DNA of 34,195 nt from a virus (taxonomy: Duplodnaviria > Heunggongvirae > Uroviricota > Caudoviricetes). The notes beneath the pieces are model-generated. The model was not told where the DNA came from. It made no database searches and saw only the letters and a list, made by a program, of their open reading frames with translations. The stretch is taken from the IMG/VR virus record IMGVR_UViG_2579778804_000007, positions 1-34,195 of that record. One strand, written 5' to 3'. Both the position numbers and the translations under genes were made by a program. Each line of letters opens with the position of its first letter. Position 1 is the first letter of the stretch. Shown here in pieces: positions 1 through 32,785 of the stretch.

Positions 1-120
1 TACCCAATTTTTCTGAATCTAAAAAGCGCCTGCGGGTGGTTTTGGTGGTGTATTAACATATTGAAAATAAAGGTTTTTTATTTTCATGTGTCCAGATAAC
101 GTCCATCTTTGAAACAAAAA

Positions 121-1003: not shown

Positions 1004-1032
1004 AATTTACCTTTTACGTCCGTTACGTGCAA
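1004..1032 (-). promoter_or_regulatory. Putative sigma70 promoter of hok-like locus 2 (TTGCAC-N17-TAAATT on minus strand)
   Basis: Same spacing and -10 hexamer as locus 1; overlaps the first TTACGT repeat cluster. Confidence 0.35.
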
Positions 1033-1600
1033 CGGATGACGTGGCTGTTTTTCCTTCCCCTTCGCCATCCTTTTTCGGAGCAGTTGTGCAAAAGTGTGCA
1101 AAAGTGATTTTTGCTGCCACTCCCCGCCAGGCCGCGCCAGTTCTGGCTTTCCAGATTTTTTCGTTTTCGTCGTCGGATCCTTTTTCAGATCTTCGATCGT
1201 GACGTAATTTTAAAAATCTCTTGTTATTCAGTGCATTAAAATTTTTCGGGATCCTCAGAAAGCCGGAGTTTTTGCACACTTTTGCAAAACCTTGCACAAA
1301 GTGCAAAACCATTCAGAAGGGAAAACCTCAGTAATGGCGCGCCCTGGAGGGGTGTTTTGCACCCCTTTCGATTTGCAAAATTTATCGTACACAAATACCG
1401 GAGGCGTGTGCGGGGTAGCGCCGATTACGTCACTTTACGCGTTACGTCGCCCCCGAAAATTTCCTGCCATTTGCGGCGATTTTGGGGCGCAGAAATCGTT
1501 TTCTGATGTCAGGGGATCGAATCGGGCTGTCGGGGTTATCTCTTCGTTACGTGGCGTTACGTGACGTTTTACGCGGGGATTACGTGGGGCGTTTCGTCCA
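1010..1600. repeat. Non-coding array of short direct and inverted repeats: about 10 copies of TTACGT(G/C) in clusters (about 1012-1045, 1196-1206, 1425-1450, 1545-1590) interleaved with GTGCAAAAG direct repeats and TTGCAC-N3-GTGCAA inverted repeats (about 1085-1110, 1270-1312, 1355-1385)
   Basis: Repeats seen directly; ORFs called here (1007..1312 minus, 1282..1564 plus) look non-protein-like. Function unknown. Confidence 0.5.
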
Positions 1601-1667
1601 TCTTTTTTTCTGCTGCGGGCGGTTTTTTCGTGGTGGGTGATGTCCGGTGATGAATATTTTTTATTGT

Positions 1668-1700
1668 CGGGGGAATAAAAAAGGCCACATTGCGCGGCCT
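1668..1700 (-). terminator. Rho-independent terminator of the phage late (tail) operon
   Basis: On minus strand: AGGCC-gcgcaatgt-GGCCT hairpin followed by TTTTTTATT, just past the stop of the last tail gene at 1715. Confidence 0.4.
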
Positions 1701-1714
1701 GTTAAAGTGAATGA

Positions 1715-3388
1715 TTATTCGATTATTGGTGAATATTTATTTTTAAGCTGGCGGCACTCCTGAGCGACCTGGCTGAACTGTGCGGCCTGCGGAGACGTGC
1801 CCGTTTTGGGGTGGGTATGTGATGCTGTAATATCTGCCAGCTCTTCCACCACATCGGCAAGGTCCGTCAGCATGGTCAGTACATTAATGCCCTCGTTTCC
1901 CAGCTTCACCGTATCGCCAACCAGCTTCTGCGCCAGCGCAATACTGTGACGGACGCCCTTAATCTTTTCGGTAAGGCTGCCGCCCACGGTGTCCAGTGTG
2001 TCGCCTTCCACGTCGCGCTCACAGGTACCGGCAACCACCATCATGTGCCCGCCCGTGCTGATGCTGTAGTTCTCTTCAGTGATATGGGTGACCGCGCCAG
2101 CCTGAAGCGTGGATACGCCCAGGACGGTGGTTGTGTCGGTTGCCTGTATGGTGGTCTCCCGGCTGGTCAGGCTCCGCATTTCCTCGTCTGCGCTCACCAC
2201 GCGCTCGCGTGATCTCTCCTGTATCCGCTGGTCTGTCTGGCGCTCCCAGTCTCCGGCGACCGTCACGCGCTGCGATACGCCGTCGCGCTGTTGCTGCAAC
2301 TGCTCGCCCGGCTTCACGTCGGGCAGATTGTGGCCCTCTGCCATTATCTGGCGGATGAAGGGCTTATCCGCCCGGCCTTCCACAAATCCCACTTCCACCA
2401 GGGTTCCGGGTGGCGGGAACTGGAACATGCCGGACTCACTGCCCGCCATGGGAACGGGGAGGGGAACGGCGTTATAAACGGGCGTATCCGCTGCCGGGTT
2501 GCCGTTCTCGTCAAGCAGCTGGAGATTCACCGCGTAGCGGGGTCTGAACGGGTCGGCAATATTGCCCGCGCTGACGGCTTCGGTCGGCGCCTCAACACGT
2601 GCCAGTTTGGGCAGGTGAAGCCCTGATGCCAGTTCAGGGAAGGCCTTTTCAGCCTGGCGACGGAAAGGGGACTTCTGGAGGGGGGCGCCGGTGGCTTTAT
2701 TGCGTGGTGTCCACGTGATGGTCATGTTGTCATCTTCCAGCATGACCATCGTCAGGCGCTGACCGTTCACCTCCACACCCGGTCGCAGCGTCTGAATCAT
2801 CGGGAGGGTCATACTGTGCCCGCCCGTTGATGCCTGGCTGAACTCGTGCGGGATGGTGACGGGGCGACCGGAAAACATCCCCTGCGCGGCAGCAGCGGCC
2901 ATAATGCCGCCGTCCGGTAACGGATGCCAGATGTAATCCGGTACGGAGAAAATACGCCCCAGACTGGCCAGCAGTTCGTAGCCCGTGCCGCTGTGCGTGA
3001 AATGCGGAACGGGCCTGTCAGTGTAAGCCGCGTTGTCCGGCAGGATGATTTCCAGCCCGCTGGTCTCACTCAGCCACTGTGTGACCGTGCGCATTGTCGG
3101 GTGCTGAAATGAACAGGGGAAGGGGTGATCAAGGATCCCCGCCATTTCACGAATCAGAAGCCGTACCGAACCGTTTTCAGCGGGCTGGCTGCGTTCAACG
3201 TATCCGGTAAACCAGCGCACCAGGTCGTTTCCGTAGCCGATATCGAGACGAACGGGGCGCCCGGTGTAGTTCTGCTCTGTTCTGGCCGTGATAAATCCGC
3301 GTCCGCACGCGTTCAGCTCAAGCATGACGGAACAACTGACCAGCTGAATGGTGTCGTTACCCAGTAACAGACGTTTAGTGGGGTTCAT
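1715..3388 (-). CDS. Phage baseplate hub / central spike protein (gpD / VgrG-like), 557 aa
   Basis: Last gene of late operon; size and C-terminal H-x-H (SHTHP) motif resemble hub-spike proteins. Family assignment from memory only. Confidence 0.45.
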   Translation of the reverse strand: MNPTKRLLLGNDTIQLVSCSVMLELNACGRGFITARTEQNYTGRPVRLDIGYGNDLVRWFTGYVERSQPAENGSVRLLIREMAGILDHPFPCSFQHPTMRTVTQWLSETSGLEIILPDNAAYTDRPVPHFTHSGTGYELLASLGRIFSVPDYIWHPLPDGGIMAAAAAQGMFSGRPVTIPHEFSQASTGGHSMTLPMIQTLRPGVEVNGQRLTMVMLEDDNMTITWTPRNKATGAPLQKSPFRRQAEKAFPELASGLHLPKLARVEAPTEAVSAGNIADPFRPRYAVNLQLLDENGNPAADTPVYNAVPLPVPMAGSESGMFQFPPPGTLVEVGFVEGRADKPFIRQIMAEGHNLPDVKPGEQLQQQRDGVSQRVTVAGDWERQTDQRIQERSRERVVSADEEMRSLTSRETTIQATDTTTVLGVSTLQAGAVTHITEENYSISTGGHMMVVAGTCERDVEGDTLDTVGGSLTEKIKGVRHSIALAQKLVGDTVKLGNEGINVLTMLTDLADVVEELADITASHTHPKTGTSPQAAQFSQVAQECRQLKNKYSPIIE

Positions 3389-12490: not shown

Positions 12491-12825
12491 TTCACCCCGT
12501 TGTGCTCAAGGCTGAAATGATTGCCGTCTGCCCGGCTGAAGCGCCCGCCCCATGTGCCGCCGATGGATTCCCAGTATTCCCCCAGCGGCCTGTAGGCGTC
12601 GGTGTCGGCCTGGTATTTGCCGTTAATAAACAGGTTGAAGTCCACCGCGAGGCGCAGGGTGTGAAGGCTGTTGCGGATGCCTTTTCCGGTTTTCGCATTC
12701 AGTGCTGCCTGCTCCGGCGTGCGGTATGCCTCGCCGAAGGTCAGGCGATAGCCGTGCTCCTGTGCCCAGTGGATGAGATCGGCAATCATGACGGCAAACA
12801 GTTGTTGTTTTTCGCTCAGATTCAT
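12487..12825 (-). CDS. Endolysin, peptidase M15 family (L-alanyl-D-glutamate peptidase type)
   Basis: 112 aa; motifs resemble small phage M15 endolysins; sits between holin and spanins. Confidence 0.65.
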   Translation of the reverse strand: MNLSEKQQLFAVMIADLIHWAQEHGYRLTFGEAYRTPEQAALNAKTGKGIRNSLHTLRLAVDFNLFINGKYQADTDAYRPLGEYWESIGGTWGGRFSRADGNHFSLEHNGVK

Positions 12826-12875
12826 GGGGTATCTCCTGTGCGTTATACAGGTTCAGGGAAGGTGAAATGTAAGGC

Positions 12876-13181
12876 TTATGGGTCATTTCTGCGTTCCTTC
12901 TGCTTCAGGTAGCGGTCTGCCAGACGGCAAAAGCATTCTTCAATAAAGGCGCTGCCCATAATGCCCAGCGCGCACGCCAGACCGACCACAACCAGTTCCG
13001 GCATGTCCGGAAATTTAAACAGCGGAATGGCGGCAACCGGCGCCACGGCAGAGCCCATAATCATTCGCCCGATAAGCAGACGGGCTGTGATGCGATCGCG
13101 GCTCACCATGAGACGCCCCAGCCCGATGGCGGCACCGATGATAATCAGTTTTGCCAGGAGTGAAGTCTGACCGTCCGGCAT
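12876..13181 (-). CDS. Holin (predicted three TM helices)
   Basis: 101 aa with three hydrophobic segments and charged C-terminus, immediately upstream of the endolysin. Confidence 0.5.
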   Translation of the reverse strand: MPDGQTSLLAKLIIIGAAIGLGRLMVSRDRITARLLIGRMIMGSAVAPVAAIPLFKFPDMPELVVVGLACALGIMGSAFIEECFCRLADRYLKQKERRNDP

Positions 13182-16563: not shown

Positions 16564-17262
16564 TTACGCTGCATTAAGGGCGCTGATGCGTGCCCTGATG
16601 CGCGCCCTGATACTTTTTACGCCAGCGGTACGGCTCAGTGCTGCCGCCTGTGCCAGGTATGCATCTGCCTTTTCCAGTACGGCAGTATCATTAATCGCGG
16701 TGGCTCTCGGTTTGCCCGCCTCGTCGCGCAGAAGATACAGCCCGGCAAATCTGAACCACTTCGCGCGGATTTCCTCATGCAGCCGCCACGAGGTGGTGAC
16801 GTTCCTGAAGGTGCGCGAAAAATACGGTTCTATGCTGTGTCCGGCCTCGCTGTTGTCGGTGGCCCACTGCAGCACCGTGTCTGCCACGAAGGCGGGCAGG
16901 GTGCTGCGGAAGTTGTCCGGTGTGGTCTGGCCTTCACTGATGGCAATGTCTGCCCAGTCAAGGGCGCGACTCAGGTCGCCCGTGTCGAACAGCCAGATGA
17001 TGCAGTACACCAGTACCGGGCAGGCGTGGCGCTTTCCGTCAGCGATATAGCGCTCCGCGACGGGCAGCCAGCGCGGCAGGAGAATGTCGCGCTTGAACGC
17101 CAGCCGCTCTTCGCGGACCGGAAGACTGCGCAGCCGTGCCACATCGCGATCAAGCTCCGCGCGTAACAGGTGGAAGCTGACCGGGGAGGCCGTCATCGCC
17201 TCCCGTCGTTCCAGTGCCTCCTGTGTGCGGATTTTCGCCCGGTGCCGCTGGCAGGGTGTCAT
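16564..17262 (-). CDS. M: Terminase small (endonuclease) subunit (P2 gpM-like)
   Basis: Start chosen at MTPCQ with GGAGGG ribosome-binding site (track ORF extends to 17418); follows the capsid gene; C-terminal RARI repeats come from GCCCTGATGCG direct repeats. Confidence 0.7.
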   Translation of the reverse strand: MTPCQRHRAKIRTQEALERREAMTASPVSFHLLRAELDRDVARLRSLPVREERLAFKRDILLPRWLPVAERYIADGKRHACPVLVYCIIWLFDTGDLSRALDWADIAISEGQTTPDNFRSTLPAFVADTVLQWATDNSEAGHSIEPYFSRTFRNVTTSWRLHEEIRAKWFRFAGLYLLRDEAGKPRATAINDTAVLEKADAYLAQAAALSRTAGVKSIRARIRARISALNAA

Positions 17263-19360: not shown

Positions 19361-19526
19361 CATGGCCTCTTTTACGTGAAAATCTGAAGAACTCCGGTGA
19401 GTGTCGGGATTTTTACAGCGGGGGGCTACTGGCTGAATTCGGCTGTCTTCGGATAACACGGGATAGCCGAACACAGCCGAAATTTTCTGCCTGAATGCGG
19501 GCCGGATGCGCCGCCATAATGGGCGC
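19361..19526. promoter_or_regulatory. Divergent late promoter region between scaffold (minus) and terminase (plus) operons; contains dyad TTCGGCTGT...ACAGCCGAA and TGT-N10-ACA elements
   Basis: Intergenic space between divergent late operons, as at the P2 O/P promoters that Ogr activates; dyads seen directly. Confidence 0.4.
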
Positions 19527-21329
19527 ATGGCTAAATATTCTGACGAAATCAAAGAGGCGGCGCGATCGCTTTACCTGAAGCGGTGGCACCCCCGCGATAT
19601 TGCGGCGGAACTCGGTATTCCGCCGCGCACGGTTTACCACTGGTGTGATGTGGGGCAGTGGGCTACCCTGCTGCCCGCTGAATCCGTTGAGGACGTGATC
19701 GCCCGGCGTATTGATGTTCTGACCGGACGGGAGGGCAAGACAGAGTGTGAACTCGCCGAACTGCGTGAACTTATCGCGCAGCACGTGAAGATCATCGCCC
19801 AGAAAAACAAACATGCTGAAAGGATGGCGGAAATTGCCGCCACGCGTCCGGCAGTGTACGACGACGGTGTGGCGGCGACCAGCGGCGGGGGTGAAGGGAA
19901 AAAGCGGCGCTACCGGAAAAACGACGTTTCCGGGCTGACTGCTGAAATGCTGGATGAATGGGCGCGTAAAAATCTTTATGCCTATCAGCTGCACTGCCGC
20001 GAGAACCGGCACCGTGAGCGCCGTTTCATCCTCAAGAGCCGCCAGATAGGCATGACCTGGTATTTTGCATGGGAGGCGTTCGAAGATGCGGTGGTGACCG
20101 GTGATAACCAGATTTTCTTTTCTGCGTCACGGGTACAGGCGGAAATCTTTCGTGAATATATTATTGATTTCGCCCAGCAGTTCGGGATCACGCTCACGGG
20201 TAAGCATATCCGTCTGAGCAATGGTGCAATGCTGCGCTTCCTGTCCACCAATGCCAGTACCGCCCAGGGATTTAACGGCCACCTTTACGGCGATGAGGTG
20301 TTCTGGATCCCAAAATTCACGCGACTGCATGAAGTGGCCTCGGCAATGGCGACCCACGACAAATACCGCACGACGTACTTTTCCACACCCAGCGCCAAAA
20401 CCCACCAGGCTTATCTGGTCTGGAACGGTGACGACTGGCGCGGGGATGACCCGACGCGTCGTGCTGTTGAGTTTCCGAAAGAAAGCGCGATGCGTGTGGG
20501 CTGTGAATGCCCTGACGGGATCTGGCGCTACATTATCCGGCTGGAAGAGGCGGTGGCGGGTGGCCTGTCTGCACGGGTTGATATTGAACGTATCAGGAAC
20601 CTCTACAACCCGACCACCTATGCGATGCTGTACGGCTGCGAGTTTGTTGACAGCAAGGATGCGGTATTTAAGTTCTCCGAACTGGTCAGGTGCGAGGTGG
20701 AGATGGAGACGTGGGGTGACTACGATCCCACGGCGGCACGTCCGTTCGGCAATCGTGAGGTGTGGGCGGGCTTTGACCCGTCAAGGTCCGGGGATAATTC
20801 CACGTTTGTGATTGTGGCTCCGCCTGTCCATGAAGGCGAGCGGTTCCGTGTGCTCGCCGTCTGGCAGTGGCAGGGATTTAACTTCACCTGGCAGGCCGAT
20901 CAGATCCGCGAACTGATGCAGCGCTTTAACATTACCTATATCGGCATAGATATCACCGGTATCGGGAAAGGGGTGTTTGATATCGTCAGTCGCTTTGCGC
21001 CACGTGAGGCTAACGCCATTCTTTACAGCGTGGAGAGCAAAAACCGCCTGGTGATGAAAATGATAGACGTGGTGGCCCATAAGCGTATCGAGTGGGCGAA
21101 AGACGCCATTGATGAGGCCAGCCGTGAACGCACGGAGATCCCCGCGTCGTTCATGTCCATACGCCGCACCACCACAAAAAGCGGTAACGCGCTGACGTTC
21201 GTGGCGGAACGGTCGGATGTTACGGGGCATGCGGATGTGTTTTTTGCCATTTCGCACGCCGTGATTAATGAGCCTGTAGATTATGACTATGAACGCCCGT
21301 CCACATGGGCCTTCGGGAAAGCCGCATGA
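19506..21329 (+). CDS. P: Terminase large (ATPase) subunit (P2 gpP-like)
   Basis: 607 aa; terminase-like ATPase region; divergent from O and followed by portal with ATGA overlap. Alternative start at 19527. Confidence 0.85.
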   Translation: MRRHNGRMAKYSDEIKEAARSLYLKRWHPRDIAAELGIPPRTVYHWCDVGQWATLLPAESVEDVIARRIDVLTGREGKTECELAELRELIAQHVKIIAQKNKHAERMAEIAATRPAVYDDGVAATSGGGEGKKRRYRKNDVSGLTAEMLDEWARKNLYAYQLHCRENRHRERRFILKSRQIGMTWYFAWEAFEDAVVTGDNQIFFSASRVQAEIFREYIIDFAQQFGITLTGKHIRLSNGAMLRFLSTNASTAQGFNGHLYGDEVFWIPKFTRLHEVASAMATHDKYRTTYFSTPSAKTHQAYLVWNGDDWRGDDPTRRAVEFPKESAMRVGCECPDGIWRYIIRLEEAVAGGLSARVDIERIRNLYNPTTYAMLYGCEFVDSKDAVFKFSELVRCEVEMETWGDYDPTAARPFGNREVWAGFDPSRSGDNSTFVIVAPPVHEGERFRVLAVWQWQGFNFTWQADQIRELMQRFNITYIGIDITGIGKGVFDIVSRFAPREANAILYSVESKNRLVMKMIDVVAHKRIEWAKDAIDEASRERTEIPASFMSIRRTTTKSGNALTFVAERSDVTGHADVFFAISHAVINEPVDYDYERPSTWAFGKAA

Positions 21330-22378
21330 GCAAGAAACGCAGAAACAAAACGTCACGCGTGACGAAAAAAGCATTCACGCCCGCACGTGGCAGCACAATC
21401 ACCTTTGGCCAGCCGGAACCGGTGCTGACCACCGGCACGGACTACCATAACATCTGGTATGACAACGAACACAACCACTGGCAGCTGCCGATTAACCGCC
21501 TGGCACTGGCGCAGCTCCCGAACCTTAACGCCCAGCATGGTGGGGTGCTGTATGCCCGCCGTAACATGGTGGCGGGGGGCTATACCGGTGGTGGTCTCAC
21601 AACGGACCAGATGGAACAGGCGGTATTTGACTACCTGTTGTTCGGCGATCTCGCCCTGCTCAAGGTGCGTAACGTATTCGGCGACGTCGTGGCACTTGAG
21701 CCGCTTCCGTCGCTGTATCTCCGGCGCCGCAAAACCGGTGAGTTCGTGGTGCTTCAGGAAGGCCCCGCGCTGGTCTATACGCCGGAAGATATTATCTTTC
21801 TGCGGATGTATGATCCGCGTCAGCAAATTTACGGGCTGCCGGATTATATCGGTGGCATTCACTCGGCGCTGCTGAACAGCGAGGCCAGCCTTTTTCGTCG
21901 CCGTTACTACAACAACGGGGCACATATGGGTTTTTTGCTGTATACGAACGACCCGGGGATCACCACGGAGATGGAGGATGAGATCCGCGAGAAGGTGGCG
22001 GAGTCTAAGGGGCTGGGAAATTTCCGCAATCTGTACATCAACATCCCCAAAGGTTCGCCGGATGGGGTGAAAATTATTCCGATTGGTGAGGTGAGCGCCA
22101 AGGATGAATTTTCAAACATCAAGGGGATCAGCGCCCAGGATGTGTTTACGGCACACCGTTTTCCTGCCGGTCTTGCGGGGATCATCCCCACGAACGGGGC
22201 CACCATCCCTAACCCGGAGACGACGCGTGAAACGTACCGCAAGGATGAGGTGATACCGCTTCAGCGTAAAATCATGAACGCCGTGAACAGCGATCCCGAT
22301 ATACCGGAACACCTTTATCTTTGTTTTGATGTGGATGCCGGGCATGTGGCGGAAGAAAAAGCGGTGCCGGTCGGGTAA
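21326..22378 (+). CDS. Q: Portal protein (P2 gpQ-like)
   Basis: 350 aa; start overlaps the terminase stop (ATGA); P2-like position downstream of P. Confidence 0.8.
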   Translation: MSKKRRNKTSRVTKKAFTPARGSTITFGQPEPVLTTGTDYHNIWYDNEHNHWQLPINRLALAQLPNLNAQHGGVLYARRNMVAGGYTGGGLTTDQMEQAVFDYLLFGDLALLKVRNVFGDVVALEPLPSLYLRRRKTGEFVVLQEGPALVYTPEDIIFLRMYDPRQQIYGLPDYIGGIHSALLNSEASLFRRRYYNNGAHMGFLLYTNDPGITTEMEDEIREKVAESKGLGNFRNLYINIPKGSPDGVKIIPIGEVSAKDEFSNIKGISAQDVFTAHRFPAGLAGIIPTNGATIPNPETTRETYRKDEVIPLQRKIMNAVNSDPDIPEHLYLCFDVDAGHVAEEKAVPVG

Positions 22379-31786: not shown

Positions 31787-32153
31787 TGGTTTTATTAAGT
31801 GCTATTTCTCCGAATATATCCACAGCCTGCTCAACGGGCAGATTAATCATTATTCCACGGGTTGCGTATAGCATTATTCCGATGCATCCATTTTCTCTAC
31901 TTTCGCAAAAGTGCCCGAACTCTGCTTCTGGTTTAAGTATCAGGTCATCAATGTTTTCATTCGCTTTTAGCTTTGAACAAAAGTTAATTAATCCTTTAAG
32001 CTCTTTGTGTAACTCGCTATAGGTTGTTGTGATTGTTATTTTCGGTGAGCCTTCCAGATGCATCAATATCGTGGCGTCCTTGTGTTCCTCTTTCAGGAGG
32101 CTTAACTGCTTAAGGACGGTTGCGGTTTTTTCTGATTTATTTTTGCCGCTCAT
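31758..32153 (-). CDS. Hypothetical protein, 131 aa, AT-rich, second gene of early operon
   Basis: Start 6 nt after the Cox-like gene stop; markedly lower GC than surrounding phage genes. Confidence 0.5.
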   Translation of the reverse strand: MSGKNKSEKTATVLKQLSLLKEEHKDATILMHLEGSPKITITTTYSELHKELKGLINFCSKLKANENIDDLILKPEAEFGHFCESRENGCIGIMLYATRGIMINLPVEQAVDIFGEIALNKTTIYKRKMPE

Positions 32154-32159
32154 CGATCA

Positions 32160-32684
32160 TCACCGTTCGTTTACATCCTGGCTCTGTTCCAGCTTTGACT
32201 TTCTGCCTTTGTAAACCCGTTTTCCATTGACGGTCTGGCAATCTTCCTTATCAGCCGGGGTAAACTTTCTTTTCTGGCGGTCGTATGTCCAGTAGCTTTT
32301 CCAGTTGTGCCATTCTGGTGGCTCACATTCCGGGAGTTCGTCGGCCAGCTTGTCCCACTCTCTGACGTTAAACCACCAAACACCATCCGAATTCTCATCT
32401 TCAGGGTTTGAGCGGGTTTTATGCCCTGGCATCTGGTTACGCTGAAGAGCTGCGCGTAATGCTGTTTTTGTTAATCCGATGTAGGCGGCCCCTTTTTCAA
32501 GTGAGCAAAGCCCGGCTATTGGGCCATCCAGCCGCAGGGTTGCCCCTTTTTTATATGTGCGCTGTGGCTTTTGTTCGTCGTTGTTATCTGTTGCTTCTTG
32601 TTGACTGGTATCGGCGTTGATGTACGCCGCTCCAGTTGTGTGATCGGTGTCAGATAACTCTTTATCGGCAATGAAGTCCCGCAT
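32160..32684 (-). CDS. Cox-like helix-turn-helix protein (putative excisionase / early regulator) with acidic N-terminal extension, 174 aa
   Basis: First gene of the early operon, divergent from the repressor; HTH AAYIGLTKTALRAALQRN then Trp-rich segment resembling P2 Cox; GAGAGGA ribosome-binding site. Confidence 0.45.
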   Translation of the reverse strand: MRDFIADKELSDTDHTTGAAYINADTSQQEATDNNDEQKPQRTYKKGATLRLDGPIAGLCSLEKGAAYIGLTKTALRAALQRNQMPGHKTRSNPEDENSDGVWWFNVREWDKLADELPECEPPEWHNWKSYWTYDRQKRKFTPADKEDCQTVNGKRVYKGRKSKLEQSQDVNER

Positions 32685-32785
32685 TTGTTATCCTCTCGCA
32701 CAGGTGCGCCTATTGCACCTTATGAAGGTTTGTTTTGGTTTGTTTAATGTCGAAATTACGACACTTTTGCGAGGATTTTAGTGGT
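32685..32785. promoter_or_regulatory. Immunity switch region: divergent early and repressor promoters with inverted repeat GGTGC-gcctatt-GCACC (candidate operator)
   Basis: Intergenic between divergent Cox-like and repressor genes; palindrome seen directly; promoter hexamers not confidently assigned. Confidence 0.4.

Follow-up and report, generated by a model that had tools for sequence, protein, structure and literature searches.

Between two hok/sok loci on one side and a tail gene on the other, the 34,195-bp stretch of DNA analysed here (the window) carries about 600 bp packed with short repeats, and the question raised by this locus is which process they serve. An earlier note on this DNA had proposed a multi-site DNA-binding array, such as integrase arm sites at the prophage junction, a partition-like site or iterons; the generic idea fits all findings, but every specific proposal (arm, partition, iteron) fails. 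Comparison with related phages makes it highly probable that window positions ~1014-1632 are the cos region of an HP1/ESSI-2-like temperate myovirus prophage located between serS and dmsA. That note correctly placed the array between the hok loci and the terminator of the tail operon, as the sok matches stop at 997 and this terminator (Table 1), which lies downstream of the orf35 homologue, forms the right limit of the cos region.

Motifs were counted on both strands of the window. TTACGTS was found 14 times, against 5.6 ± 2.2 in shuffled sequences, with 8 of the 14 copies falling in 1014-1586 (binomial P = 1.7e-11, ~1e-9 once corrected for the choice of interval), seven on the plus strand (1014, 1023, 1425, 1442, 1547, 1557 and 1580) and one inverted (1201-1207). 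Together with close variants (TTACGCG at 1435 and 1569, TGACGTG at 1037, TTTCGTC at 1165 and 1592, TTTCGTG at 1626), these copies make up ~11-14 heptamer sites in four clusters, in agreement with the roughly ten TTACGT(G/C) motifs in four clusters described before. TGCAAAA was also present in 14 copies, 8 of them within 1087-1380 (P = 8.6e-14). Direct repeats had been reported among the heptamers and were recovered as GTGCAAAAGTGTGCAAAAG at 1086-1104; the TTGCAC-N3-GTGCAA palindrome reported alongside them is present (1292-1306), but as a single exact copy and not in the plural. Spacing of repeats within clusters was 7-14 bp, and 9-12 bp in most cases.

The layout is given in Table 1. Counted from the start of a conserved 17-mer at 1402, the proximal heptamers begin at +23, +33 and +40, and in the distal right cluster four core copies lie 10-12 bp apart, with degenerate TTTCGTC (1592) and TTTCGTG (1626) added. 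An inverted-repeat search returned, besides the GC-rich boxes, a 21-nt pair (1083-1103 and 1270-1290, 95% complementary) and a 10-nt pair (GTGACGTAAT and ATTACGTCAC, 100% complementary). GATC sites reach four in 75 bp, compared with 0.35 per 100 bp window-wide. The A/T-rich segment is possibly a bend or IHF-type site; by eye, no clear IHF consensus was seen in it.

Table 1. Coordinates of features in and around the repeat array (window positions)
Feature	Position	Strand	Remarks
att crossover core CCTGCGGG	29..36	.	true left prophage boundary; outside array
GTGTCCA-N6-GTCCATC, likely integrase arm-type repeat	88..107	+	recurs at 3' end of int
Distal left heptamers TTACGTC 1014, TTACGTG 1023, TGACGTG 1037	1014..1043	+	adjoins hok/sok cargo
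Distal left TGCAAAA repeats GTGCAAAAGT GTGCAAAAG	1086..1104	+	10 bp apart
GC-rich inverted boxes, 1119-1145 and 1329-1355	1119..1355	.	27 nt, 81% complementary; A/T-rich centre between
GATC sites (n = 3)	1176, 1188, 1195		ahead of inverted heptamer
Inverted heptamer GACGTAA	1201-1207	-	exact reverse complement of TTACGTC; -201 from core
A/T-rich segment AATTTTAAAAATCTCTTGTTATTCAGTGCATTAAAATTTTT	1206..1248	.	
Central TGCAAAA block TTTTGCAC-AC-TTTTGCAAAA-CC-TTGCAC-AAA-GTGCAAAA	1270..1308	.	includes palindrome 1292-1306
Core-proximal TGCAAAA pair TTTTGCAC-N11-TTTGCAAAATTT	1355..1383	.	19 bp (1384-1402) short of 16-nt core
cosN-like core GGCGTGTGCGGGGTAG, predicted cohesive-end segment	1403..1418	+	homology to relatives' genome ends
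Inverted tetranucleotides GGCG / CGCC around core	1403-1406 / 1419-1422		
Proximal right heptamers TTACGTC 1425, TTACGCG 1435, TTACGTC 1442	1425..1448	+	
Distal right cluster TTACGTG 1547, TTACGTG 1557, TTACGCG 1569, TTACGTG 1580	1547..1632	+	
Intrinsic terminator, tail operon	1682..1700	-	8-bp stem, 5 GC pairs, then T run
gpM-type small terminase subunit	16564..17262	-	Pfam PF05944, E 1.3e-36
gpP-type large terminase subunit, Terminase_5	19506..21329	+	Pfam PF03237, PF17289, PF06056; N-terminal HTH_23 sub-threshold
Portal protein	21305-22378		

A core homologous to the genome ends of related phages

Searches of the region against a phage collection left the array unmatched (megablast returned the hok part only, and blastn the terminator only), so homologues were reached via the neighbouring tail gene, a 557-aa homologue of HP1 orf35 (1715-3388, minus strand). 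Homology to sequenced phages rests on short conserved blocks in conserved order, at a DNA similarity too low for blastn. The orf35 gene is the last before the right genome end in HP1, HP2, K139, F108 and phiO18P, and the records that break at genome ends (HP1, HP2, K139, F108, phiO18P, SW5 and ESSI-2) stop ~160-220 bp past the orf35 homologue. The array has the position of the HP1 cos site, with the last tail gene (the orf35 homologue) on one side and attP/int on the other; the cos site of HP1 and HP2 adjoins attP and not the portal gene (Lavigne et al. 2009, PMC2771037).

Window positions 1403-1418 are identical at 14 of 16 bases to GGCGGGTGCGGTGTAG of ESSI-2, which is duplicated as a 15-nt repeat at both ends of the ESSI-2 record, whose first and last sequence are both GCGGGTGCGGTGTAG. 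The break of the SW5 record falls inside the core sequence, sequencing-adapter remnants are joined within the core in ev015 and ev129, and the annotated 16-nt cosL/cosR of phiO18P, GGCGGGAGCGGATGAG, is homologous to the core (~11/16 identical by hand count). For PV94, a relative of K139, 16-nt 5' overhangs were determined experimentally (PMC3986222). The 17-mer AGGCGGGTGCGGTGTAG is invariant in 22 of 22 prophage loci from other Enterobacterales (~15 genera), and its copy in the window has two substitutions, which could represent a change of specificity or a defect. The 19-mer of the P2/186 cos site was absent from the whole window at up to 3 mismatches, and inspection of the portal-ogr region showed neither a P2-position cos site beside the portal gene nor a sizeable non-coding gap. 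Homology between the centre of the array and the physical genome ends of related phages argues that the array is a cos site, and a cos-type terminase pair (gpM small subunit and gpP large subunit) is encoded by the same element.

In the packaging step proposed here, the gpP/gpM terminase would cut at the core GGCGTGTGCGGGGTAG (1403-1418), with the gpP-type large subunit as the presumed nuclease, and, judging from the homologous phiO18P and PV94 sites, would leave ~16-nt cohesive ends; precise nick positions and overhang polarity are presumptive.

Flanking repeats in relatives and their candidate readers

Heptamers of the form TT[CTA][CT]G[TC]N were present in 22 of 22 related loci at +22/+23 and +40/+42/+43, with the last base always C or G, and TT[CTA]CGTG lies directly right of the cos ends in HP1, F108, K139 and phiO18P. 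On the left, a loose inverted-heptamer pattern ([CGT][AG]C[AG][AGT]AA) was located exactly at -203 in 16 of the 22 relatives (-201 in the window) and at -194 to -200 in three further ones, with mostly C/GAC-type matches and weaker ones in L014 (GGCAAAA) and L028 (TGCAAAA). Heptamer types (TTCCGTC, TTTTGTC, TTTCGTC, TTACGTC) follow lineage, and their register to the core is fixed. Since the inverted copy in TTCCGTC phages is mostly GACGGAA and the counterpart pair in the window is TTACGTC/GACGTAA, the inverted heptamer covaries with the right-hand heptamer; exact covariation is limited to the TGCAAA lineage; in ESSI-2-type phages the right-hand TTTTGTC goes with a left-hand C/GACGTAA. Repeat type tracks the overall phylogeny.

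Elements between the heptamers hold their places as well. The block CTTTTAAAAACA..GTTAT.CAGT of the A/T-rich segment is conserved in position, and relatives have boxes similar to the GC-rich pair (CCAG.C.GCGCC with its complement) in corresponding places. At the distal left TGCAAAA position, relatives have one TTTGCAAAA or, as in L010 (TTTGCAATA), a near match to it. When the window was aligned with L010-L013 and L030 (56% identity), the conserved columns fell on the core, the inverted heptamer and the TGCAAA units, and an aligned block at the core-proximal pair, TTTGC(A/G)CAAAA..TTTTGCAAAATTTTT, is found in L010-L013, L030 and SI7. ESSI-2-type relatives have AAACTGAAAAA at the position of this pair, and CTGAAA(A)/TTTTCA repeats replace TGCAAAA in their central block. 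As judged from these alignments, the motifs picked out in the earlier note are lineage-specific versions of conserved cos-flanking repeats.

The distal clusters (1014-1043 and 1547-1632) are without counterpart in most relatives; in L013, a similar cluster at the distal left is made of the TTCCGTC/GACGGAA heptamers of that prophage. The close relatives L040-L043 and L001 share the distal right cluster and tolerate T/C exchanges at the sixth heptamer base; at ~97-99% identity they are too similar for testing selective motif conservation. More distant relatives lack this cluster, which marks it as a lineage-specific expansion. Of the whole proposal, a packaging role for the distal clusters has the least support.

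Most likely, we infer, the repeats are recognition sites of the gpM/gpP-type terminase, read by gpM and/or the N-terminal HTH of gpP. The two repeat families would act as recognition and assembly sites for the packaging complex, with the gpM-type small subunit as candidate trans-acting reader and the gpP-type large subunit as a second candidate. Such a complex would meet TTACGY(G/C) heptamers directly right of the core, a single inverted heptamer ~200 bp leftward and further clusters distally on either side, together with three blocks of TGCAAAA units left of the core. The repeats recur roughly once per helical turn and are grouped around an A/T-rich centre that GATC sites flank and the inverted GC-boxes enclose.

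Three changes co-occur in the lineage of the window: the switch from TTCCGTC to TTACGY(G/C) with a matching inverted copy, the two core substitutions, and the expansion from 2-3 to ~11-14 heptamers. A more specific scheme, in which the two families form a two-part address for gpM and the gpP HTH, and the switch, core substitutions and expansion mark a shift of packaging specificity, is speculative and, in our estimate, rather doubtful; if true, the shift would protect this E. coli lineage against cross-packaging, whether by related phages or by satellites that carry cos.

Improbable, and more so than this scheme, is a reading in which the cos core is real but the repeats serve something other than terminase. 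A nucleoid protein of the host or a phage regulator might bind them, or the GATC cluster might form a switch that depends on Dam, and such a factor might control the time of packaging or transcription through the cos region. It would be compatible with the GATC density in the array, with a GATC site lying ~15 nt or less from the inverted-heptamer position (10 of the 15 relatives displayed), and with the lineage-specific nature of the distal clusters. Against it, the register of the repeats to the core is fixed across genera, their sequence differs between lineages in the way that co-evolution with a phage protein would be expected to produce, a scan for sigma-70-like promoters across 950-1760 found none, and TTACGTS and TGCAAAA are missing from the C-cox switch region. 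Methylation of the GATC cluster by a Dam of the phage's own was discounted, as the DNA methyltransferase of the NZ_CP148318 prophage, a close relative, is missing from the lysis cassette of the window's phage.

Plasmid-type, integrase and coding readings

With its phased direct repeats, A/T-rich segment and clustered GATC sites, the locus superficially resembles an iteron origin, and the adjoining hok/sok loci are typical plasmid-stabilisation cargo, so that a plasmid-type iteron origin or partition (centromere) site, perhaps reflecting a plasmid-prophage state or a hitch-hiking satellite, had to be weighed. Neither suggestion of the earlier note in this direction held, and we regard this reading as very improbable, because the neighbouring genes include no rep or par gene, the local ORFs are without family match, the phage has its own replication gene (a P2 A-type rolling-circle replication endonuclease), and the middle of the array shares homology with the ends of virion DNA. 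Full-length copies of the sequence were found inside prophages in 12 E. coli chromosomes and not in genuine plasmids, the sole 'plasmid' match being a 1.2-Mb record; the prophage lineage is rare in E. coli (12 of 5,426 complete genomes). A permissive-threshold Rfam search gave no family within 1000-1720, and returned two sok RNAs only, outside the array.

Integrase arm-type or Cox sites of attP at the prophage junction would likewise be non-coding multi-copy repeats sharing an inter-module gap with att, and cos and attP adjoin in HP1-like phages (PMC2771037). The location of the att site makes this reading even harder to credit. The element is an HP1/ESSI-2-like Peduoviridae prophage integrated between serS and dmsA, with attL within the window and attR beside int in NZ_CP148318, and its crossover core was placed at 29-36 by the K-12 empty serS-dmsA site (aaaaagcgCCTGCGGGcgcttttttt) and both NZ_CP148318 junctions. 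The array was previously thought to lie exactly at the left prophage boundary; alignment with the empty site and comparison with the right prophage end both put that boundary at 29-36, and the array begins ~1 kb further, at 1014. Two hok/sok loci, cargo between the att core and the array, and the array itself are thus inside the prophage. Another motif, the bipartite GTGTCCA-N6-GTCCATC, flanks the crossover core on both att arms; it is unrelated to TTACGT or TGCAAAA and is likely an integrase arm-type repeat. In SI7 and ESSI-2, att is flanked by motifs resembling it (GTGTCCAC..GTCCAC). The int-proximal arm contained no TTACGTS or TGCAAAA, bar one copy within the int coding sequence (33803), and both motifs are missing from the C-cox switch region, as given above. 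When prophages of relatives with other cargo were compared, the repeats were found to track the cos core and not att.

That the region encodes a small protein, as a 101-aa ORF (1007-1312, minus strand), plus-strand ORFs of 74-90 aa and a 96-aa RefSeq/PGAP 'hypothetical protein' (minus strand, NZ_CP148318, equivalent of window ~1007-1297) might suggest, is scarcely credible, since the five local ORFs (52-101 aa) had zero Pfam or PHROG matches, the minus-strand ORF had no significant tblastn match in relatives, stop-free stretches of relatives lie in differing frames and strands, and two overlapping plus-strand frames gave equal tblastn scores against relatives over the same DNA, so conservation is at the DNA level and not at the codon level. 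The initial impression of no convincing ORF was accurate.

Meaning and comparison with known packaging sites

The repeat stretch is an ordinary, so far unannotated phage feature and no new kind of system, and the value of the assignment lies mainly in annotation, as such an array could be read as iterons or att arms, or give rise to a spurious gene call; PGAP currently places a 'hypothetical protein' over the packaging site. For enterobacterial HP1/ESSI-2-like phages, a compact cos description can be given (the invariant 17-mer, heptamers at +23/+43, an inverted heptamer at -203, and TGCAAA or CTGAAA on the left), usable for orienting and trimming prophage and virome assemblies. The repeats are candidate recognition elements for gpM/gpP-type terminases. 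A limited literature search yielded the HP1-like cos position and the PV94 16-nt overhang, and found no defined gpM/gpP-type terminase binding sites or terminase-binding repeats in the HP1-like group.

The attP arm-site arrays of lambda, P2 and HP1 likewise consist of short, clustered direct repeats in a non-coding stretch close to att, whereas the array described here is ~1 kb off the crossover core, is built from another motif and is centred on a cos core.

In lambda, the cos region has the order cosQ - cosN - cosB, with R1-R3 and the IHF site I1 in cosB. The arrangement of cosB (R sites and IHF site) and cosQ around cosN may be likened to that of the repeats around the core here. By established knowledge and work of Feiss et al. 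cited in PMC7617512, lambda cos combines a short nicking site, repeats recognised by the small terminase and an A/T-rich bendable segment within a few hundred bp, on which the packaging complex assembles. The sequences and the small terminases are unrelated (gpNu1 versus gpM, PF05944), and the array here, for which terminase binding is a prediction, has repeats of two families to the left and right of the core over ~600 bp.

The P2/186/P4 cos site (19-nt cohesive ends, GGCGAGGCGGGGAAAGCAC) is served by a homologous gpM and gpP terminase. Its core in P2 is G-rich, starts with GGCG and has the same orientation as the core in the window, and five TGCA(T/A) units left of cosN at the P2 right end recall the TGCAAAA units here. 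The 200 bp right of the P2 core hold one distal match to the heptamer pattern and none beside the core, and P2 cos adjoins the portal gene Q (PMC2771037), whereas cos in the window is on the att side.

A close likeness is with the HP1-like cos sites (HP1/HP2, phiO18P, PV94, ESSI-2, SI7/SW5), which occupy the same place, between the orf35 homologue and attP/int, have a homologous core with TTNCGTG-type heptamers directly on the tail-gene side, and are accompanied by gpM- and gpP-type terminase genes, as here. The window differs from them in its heptamer, TTACGY(G/C) in place of TTCCGTC, TTTTGTC or TTTCGTC, in having ~11-14 heptamers against 2-3, with extra distal clusters on both sides, and in the two hok/sok loci that its phage carries between att and the predicted cleavage site.

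The core beside orf35 as a predicted cos site

The 557-aa gene at 1715–3388 (−) is a homologue of HP1 orf35 (38% identity), and is also homologous to the equivalents in ESSI-2, SI7/SW5, K139, F108 and phiO18P. In the records broken at genome ends (HP1, HP2, K139, F108, phiO18P, SW5 and ESSI-2) the orf35 equivalent is the last gene, all seven stop ~160–220 bp past it, and the HP1 record opens with an annotated cosL, next to which lie attP and int. In HP1 and HP2 cos adjoins attP, and in P2 it adjoins the portal gene (Lavigne et al. 2009, PMC2771037). Neither a P2-type 19-mer nor a non-coding gap beside the portal gene was found in the window.

Data from relatives put virion ends at the sequence homologous to the window core. 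The ESSI-2 (Cronobacter phage) record carries an identical 15 nt at its start and end, GCGGGTGCGGTGTAG; the break of the SW5 (Salmonella phage) record falls inside this sequence, and sequencing-adapter remnants in E. coli phages ev015 and ev129 are joined within it. For phiO18P, 16-nt cosL/cosR is annotated (GGCGGGAGCGGATGAG), and for PV94, a K139 relative, 16-nt 5' overhangs were determined experimentally (PMC3986222). The window core, GGCGTGTGCGGGGTAG at 1403–1418, matches the ESSI-2 sequence at 14/16 positions and shares its flanking context. The 17-mer AGGCGGGTGCGGTGTAG was invariant in 22/22 usable prophage loci (Citrobacter, Buttiauxella, Rahnella, Erwinia, Ewingella, Kosakonia, Brenneria, Mixta, Raoultella, Pantoea and others), 180–815 bp downstream of the orf35 homologue. 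Relative to it, the window 17-mer (1402–1418) has two substitutions, G to T at 1407 and T to G at 1415, which recur in the NZ_CP148318 prophage (L001) and four IMG/VR contigs (L040–L043) and are therefore fixed in the window's E. coli lineage; they could reflect altered specificity or decay. From these comparisons, the region is predicted to be an unannotated cos site, of the same kind as the attP-adjoining cos already known in HP1-like phages.

Bases 1–48 of NC_049395.1 (L006, ESSI2_ev015) are left-over Nextera transposase adapter, as are the first ~43 and last ~50 bases of NC_049394.1 (ev129; L038, L039), joined in both cases inside the cos core; the adapter in these RefSeq/ENA records reads TCGTCGGCAGCGTCAGATGTGTATAAGAGACAG and its complement. 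The cos core of SI7 (NC_049460.1; L003 ~2480–2500) reads AGGCGGGTGC-CGCCG, without the 7 nt GGTGTAG of SW5 and a Citrobacter prophage (L010), probably because the cohesive end was collapsed in a circularised assembly.

Repeats flanking the core

The earlier note saw no convincing ORF in the array, and this held: ORFs of the region (52–101 aa) matched no Pfam or PHROG family. No Rfam family was matched inside 1000–1720, two Rfam sok matches stopping at 997. PGAP calls a 96-aa hypothetical protein, WP_238873752.1, over the left half of the cos region (1007–1312 (−), also given as ~1007–1297; L001 20109–20399), with neither a family match nor protein-level conservation, which is probably a spurious gene call. 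In tblastn over the cos-flanking DNA two overlapping reading frames score equally, which argues for constraint on the DNA and not on protein.

Over its two strands the window has 14 copies of TTACGTS (shuffles, 5.6 ± 2.2), and 8/14 copies fall within 1014–1586 (binomial P 1.7e-11), seven in + orientation and one inverted at 1201–1207; including near-variants, there are ~11–14 sites in four clusters. Eight of the 14 window copies of TGCAAAA lie in 1087–1380 (P 8.6e-14). Spacing inside clusters is 7–14 bp, mostly 9–12 bp. Motif counts and clustering P values confirm that the clustered TTACGT and TGCAAAA repeats are real; of the TTGCAC-N3-GTGCAA palindromes described with them, one exact copy was counted.

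Features of the cos region and related elements (offsets counted from 1402)
Feature	Window position	Strand	Remark
GTGTCCA-N6-GTCCATC direct repeat	88–107		bipartite; again at 3' end of int (L002, NZ_CP148318 prophage, 10075–10055), i.e. both sides of att core
hok ORFs	239–379, 712–852	−	
sok-like RNAs	368–528, 842–997	−	
Tandem GTGCAAAAGTGTGCAAAAG	1086–1104		
TTGCAC-N3-GTGCAA palindrome	1292–1306		single exact copy
Heptamer near-variants	TTACGCG 1435, 1569; TGACGTG 1037; TTTCGTC 1165, 1592; TTTCGTG 1626		motif count
Heptamers right of core	TTACGTC +23, TTACGCG +33, TTACGTC +40		
Terminase_5/HTH-like domain	19506–19715		N-terminal, gpP-type large terminase
P2 TGCA(T/A) units			TGCAATGA, TTGCATTCA, GTGCATGA, TTGCATTAA, GTGCATTAA; same side of cosN as window TGCAAAA

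Directly to the right of the core, a heptamer TT[CTA][CT]G[TC]N occurs at +22/+23 in every one of the 22 loci and another at +40/+42/+43, the final base being C or G in every site, and the types TTCCGTC, TTTTGTC and TTTCGTC track lineage. A loose inverted-heptamer pattern, mostly C/GAC-type, lies at exactly −203 in 16/22 loci (the two weaker matches are GGCAAAA and TGCAAAA), and the window has GACGTAA at −201. The closest lineage pairs TTCCGTC with GACGGAA where the window pairs TTACGTC with GACGTAA, so both orientations changed together; pairing is imperfect in ESSI-2-type phages (TTTTGTC right, C/GACGTAA left). Left of the core, TGCAAA(A) units occur in SI7, five other Enterobacterales loci (L010–L013, L030) and the window, and CTGAAA(A)/TTTTCA units take the aligned positions in the ESSI-2 lineage. 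Conserved columns of the ~56%-identity alignment coincide with the TGCAAA units and the inverted heptamer, and also with an A/T-rich block, two inverted GC-rich boxes and the core. The array repeats thus appear, by alignment, to be conserved cos-flanking elements; a regulatory role distinct from packaging seems improbable. The window lineage adds a duplicated distal TGCAAAA unit (1086–1104) and heptamer clusters at 1014–1043 and 1547–1632, and L013 has a comparable distal-left cluster in its own heptamer type; what the distal clusters do is the least secure point of the cos account. No description of the conserved arrangement of repeats was found in the literature searched, coverage of which was incomplete.

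Prophage boundary and cargo

Of 5,426 complete E. coli genomes, only 12 have the full-length region, and in all 12 the copy is chromosomal. The NZ_CP148318 copy is 98% identical to the window, in the order serS, hok, hok, array region, tail genes, P2-type capsid genes, terminase and portal, ogr, replication endonuclease, cox, C, int, dmsA. The serS stop codon immediately precedes window base 1. Comparison of the empty K-12 serS–dmsA site (aaaaagcgCCTGCGGGcgcttttttt) with the same junction in the window (aaaaagcgCCTGCGGGtggtttt) and the int-proximal junction (aaacctCCTGCGGGcgcttttttt) gives a crossover core, CCTGCGGG, at 29–36, which puts both the array and the hok/sok loci within the prophage. 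The array, which the earlier note had placed at the left boundary, begins ~1 kb from it, and the att core lies outside the array.

An iteron origin or partition-like site, also suggested for the array, is not needed, since the phage replicates by means of an A-type replication endonuclease; no rep or par gene is adjacent and the distribution is not that of a plasmid. Integrase arm sites are excluded by the ~1 kb distance from the att core, by a different motif, and by repeats that travel with the cos core. The arm-type integrase site is likely GTGTCCA-N6-GTCCATC, not TTACGT. Motifs of the form GTGTCCAC..GTCCAC occur near att in SI7, ESSI-2 and L010 and are likewise probable arm-type sites.

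Two tandem hok/sok toxin–antitoxin loci are the cargo between attL and cos (200–1000), where ev015 has a serine acetyltransferase and small ORFs, ESSI-2 an unrelated ORF and SI7 almost nothing; with such differing cargo, the slot looks like a moron hotspot. The tail side looks like a second cargo slot: in five loci (L014, L015, L018, L021, L027) the cos core lies 480–815 bp from the orf35 stop, against ~180–220 bp in most, the added DNA being A/T-rich and beyond the terminator. L001 also has a hok region ~250 bp longer than the window's, and its M15 peptidase and holin genes are separated by a gene for a site-specific DNA methyltransferase (31951–32703) that is absent in the window (12825–12876).

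Packaging and comparison with known systems

Among the genes of the element are those for a gpM-type small terminase subunit (PF05944), a gpP-type large subunit whose N-terminus has an HTH, and a portal protein. On the most economical reading, terminase would assemble on the phased repeats, bending or wrapping of the DNA would be made possible by the A/T-rich centre and inverted boxes, and the large subunit would nick the core to give cohesive ends of roughly 16 nt, with recognition specificity coming from the fixed-register heptamers and TGCAAAA units. The HTH-like domain may give the large terminase its own DNA sequence reader, besides gpM; the equal number of repeat families and DNA-binding modules, two of each, is no more than suggestive.

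The proposed arrangement follows the same logic as lambda cosQ–cosN–cosB. HP1, F108, K139 and phiO18P have TTCCGTG, TTTCGTG or TTACGTG just past the cos end on the orf35 side, and HP1 has an inverted ACGTAA on the opposite side of cos. In P2, five TGCA(T/A) units stand to the left of a cosN that has the same orientation as here, within the final 220 bp ahead of cosR at the right end (L053); TGCA-type units may be old in the family and could represent an ancestral element recognised by P2-family terminases.
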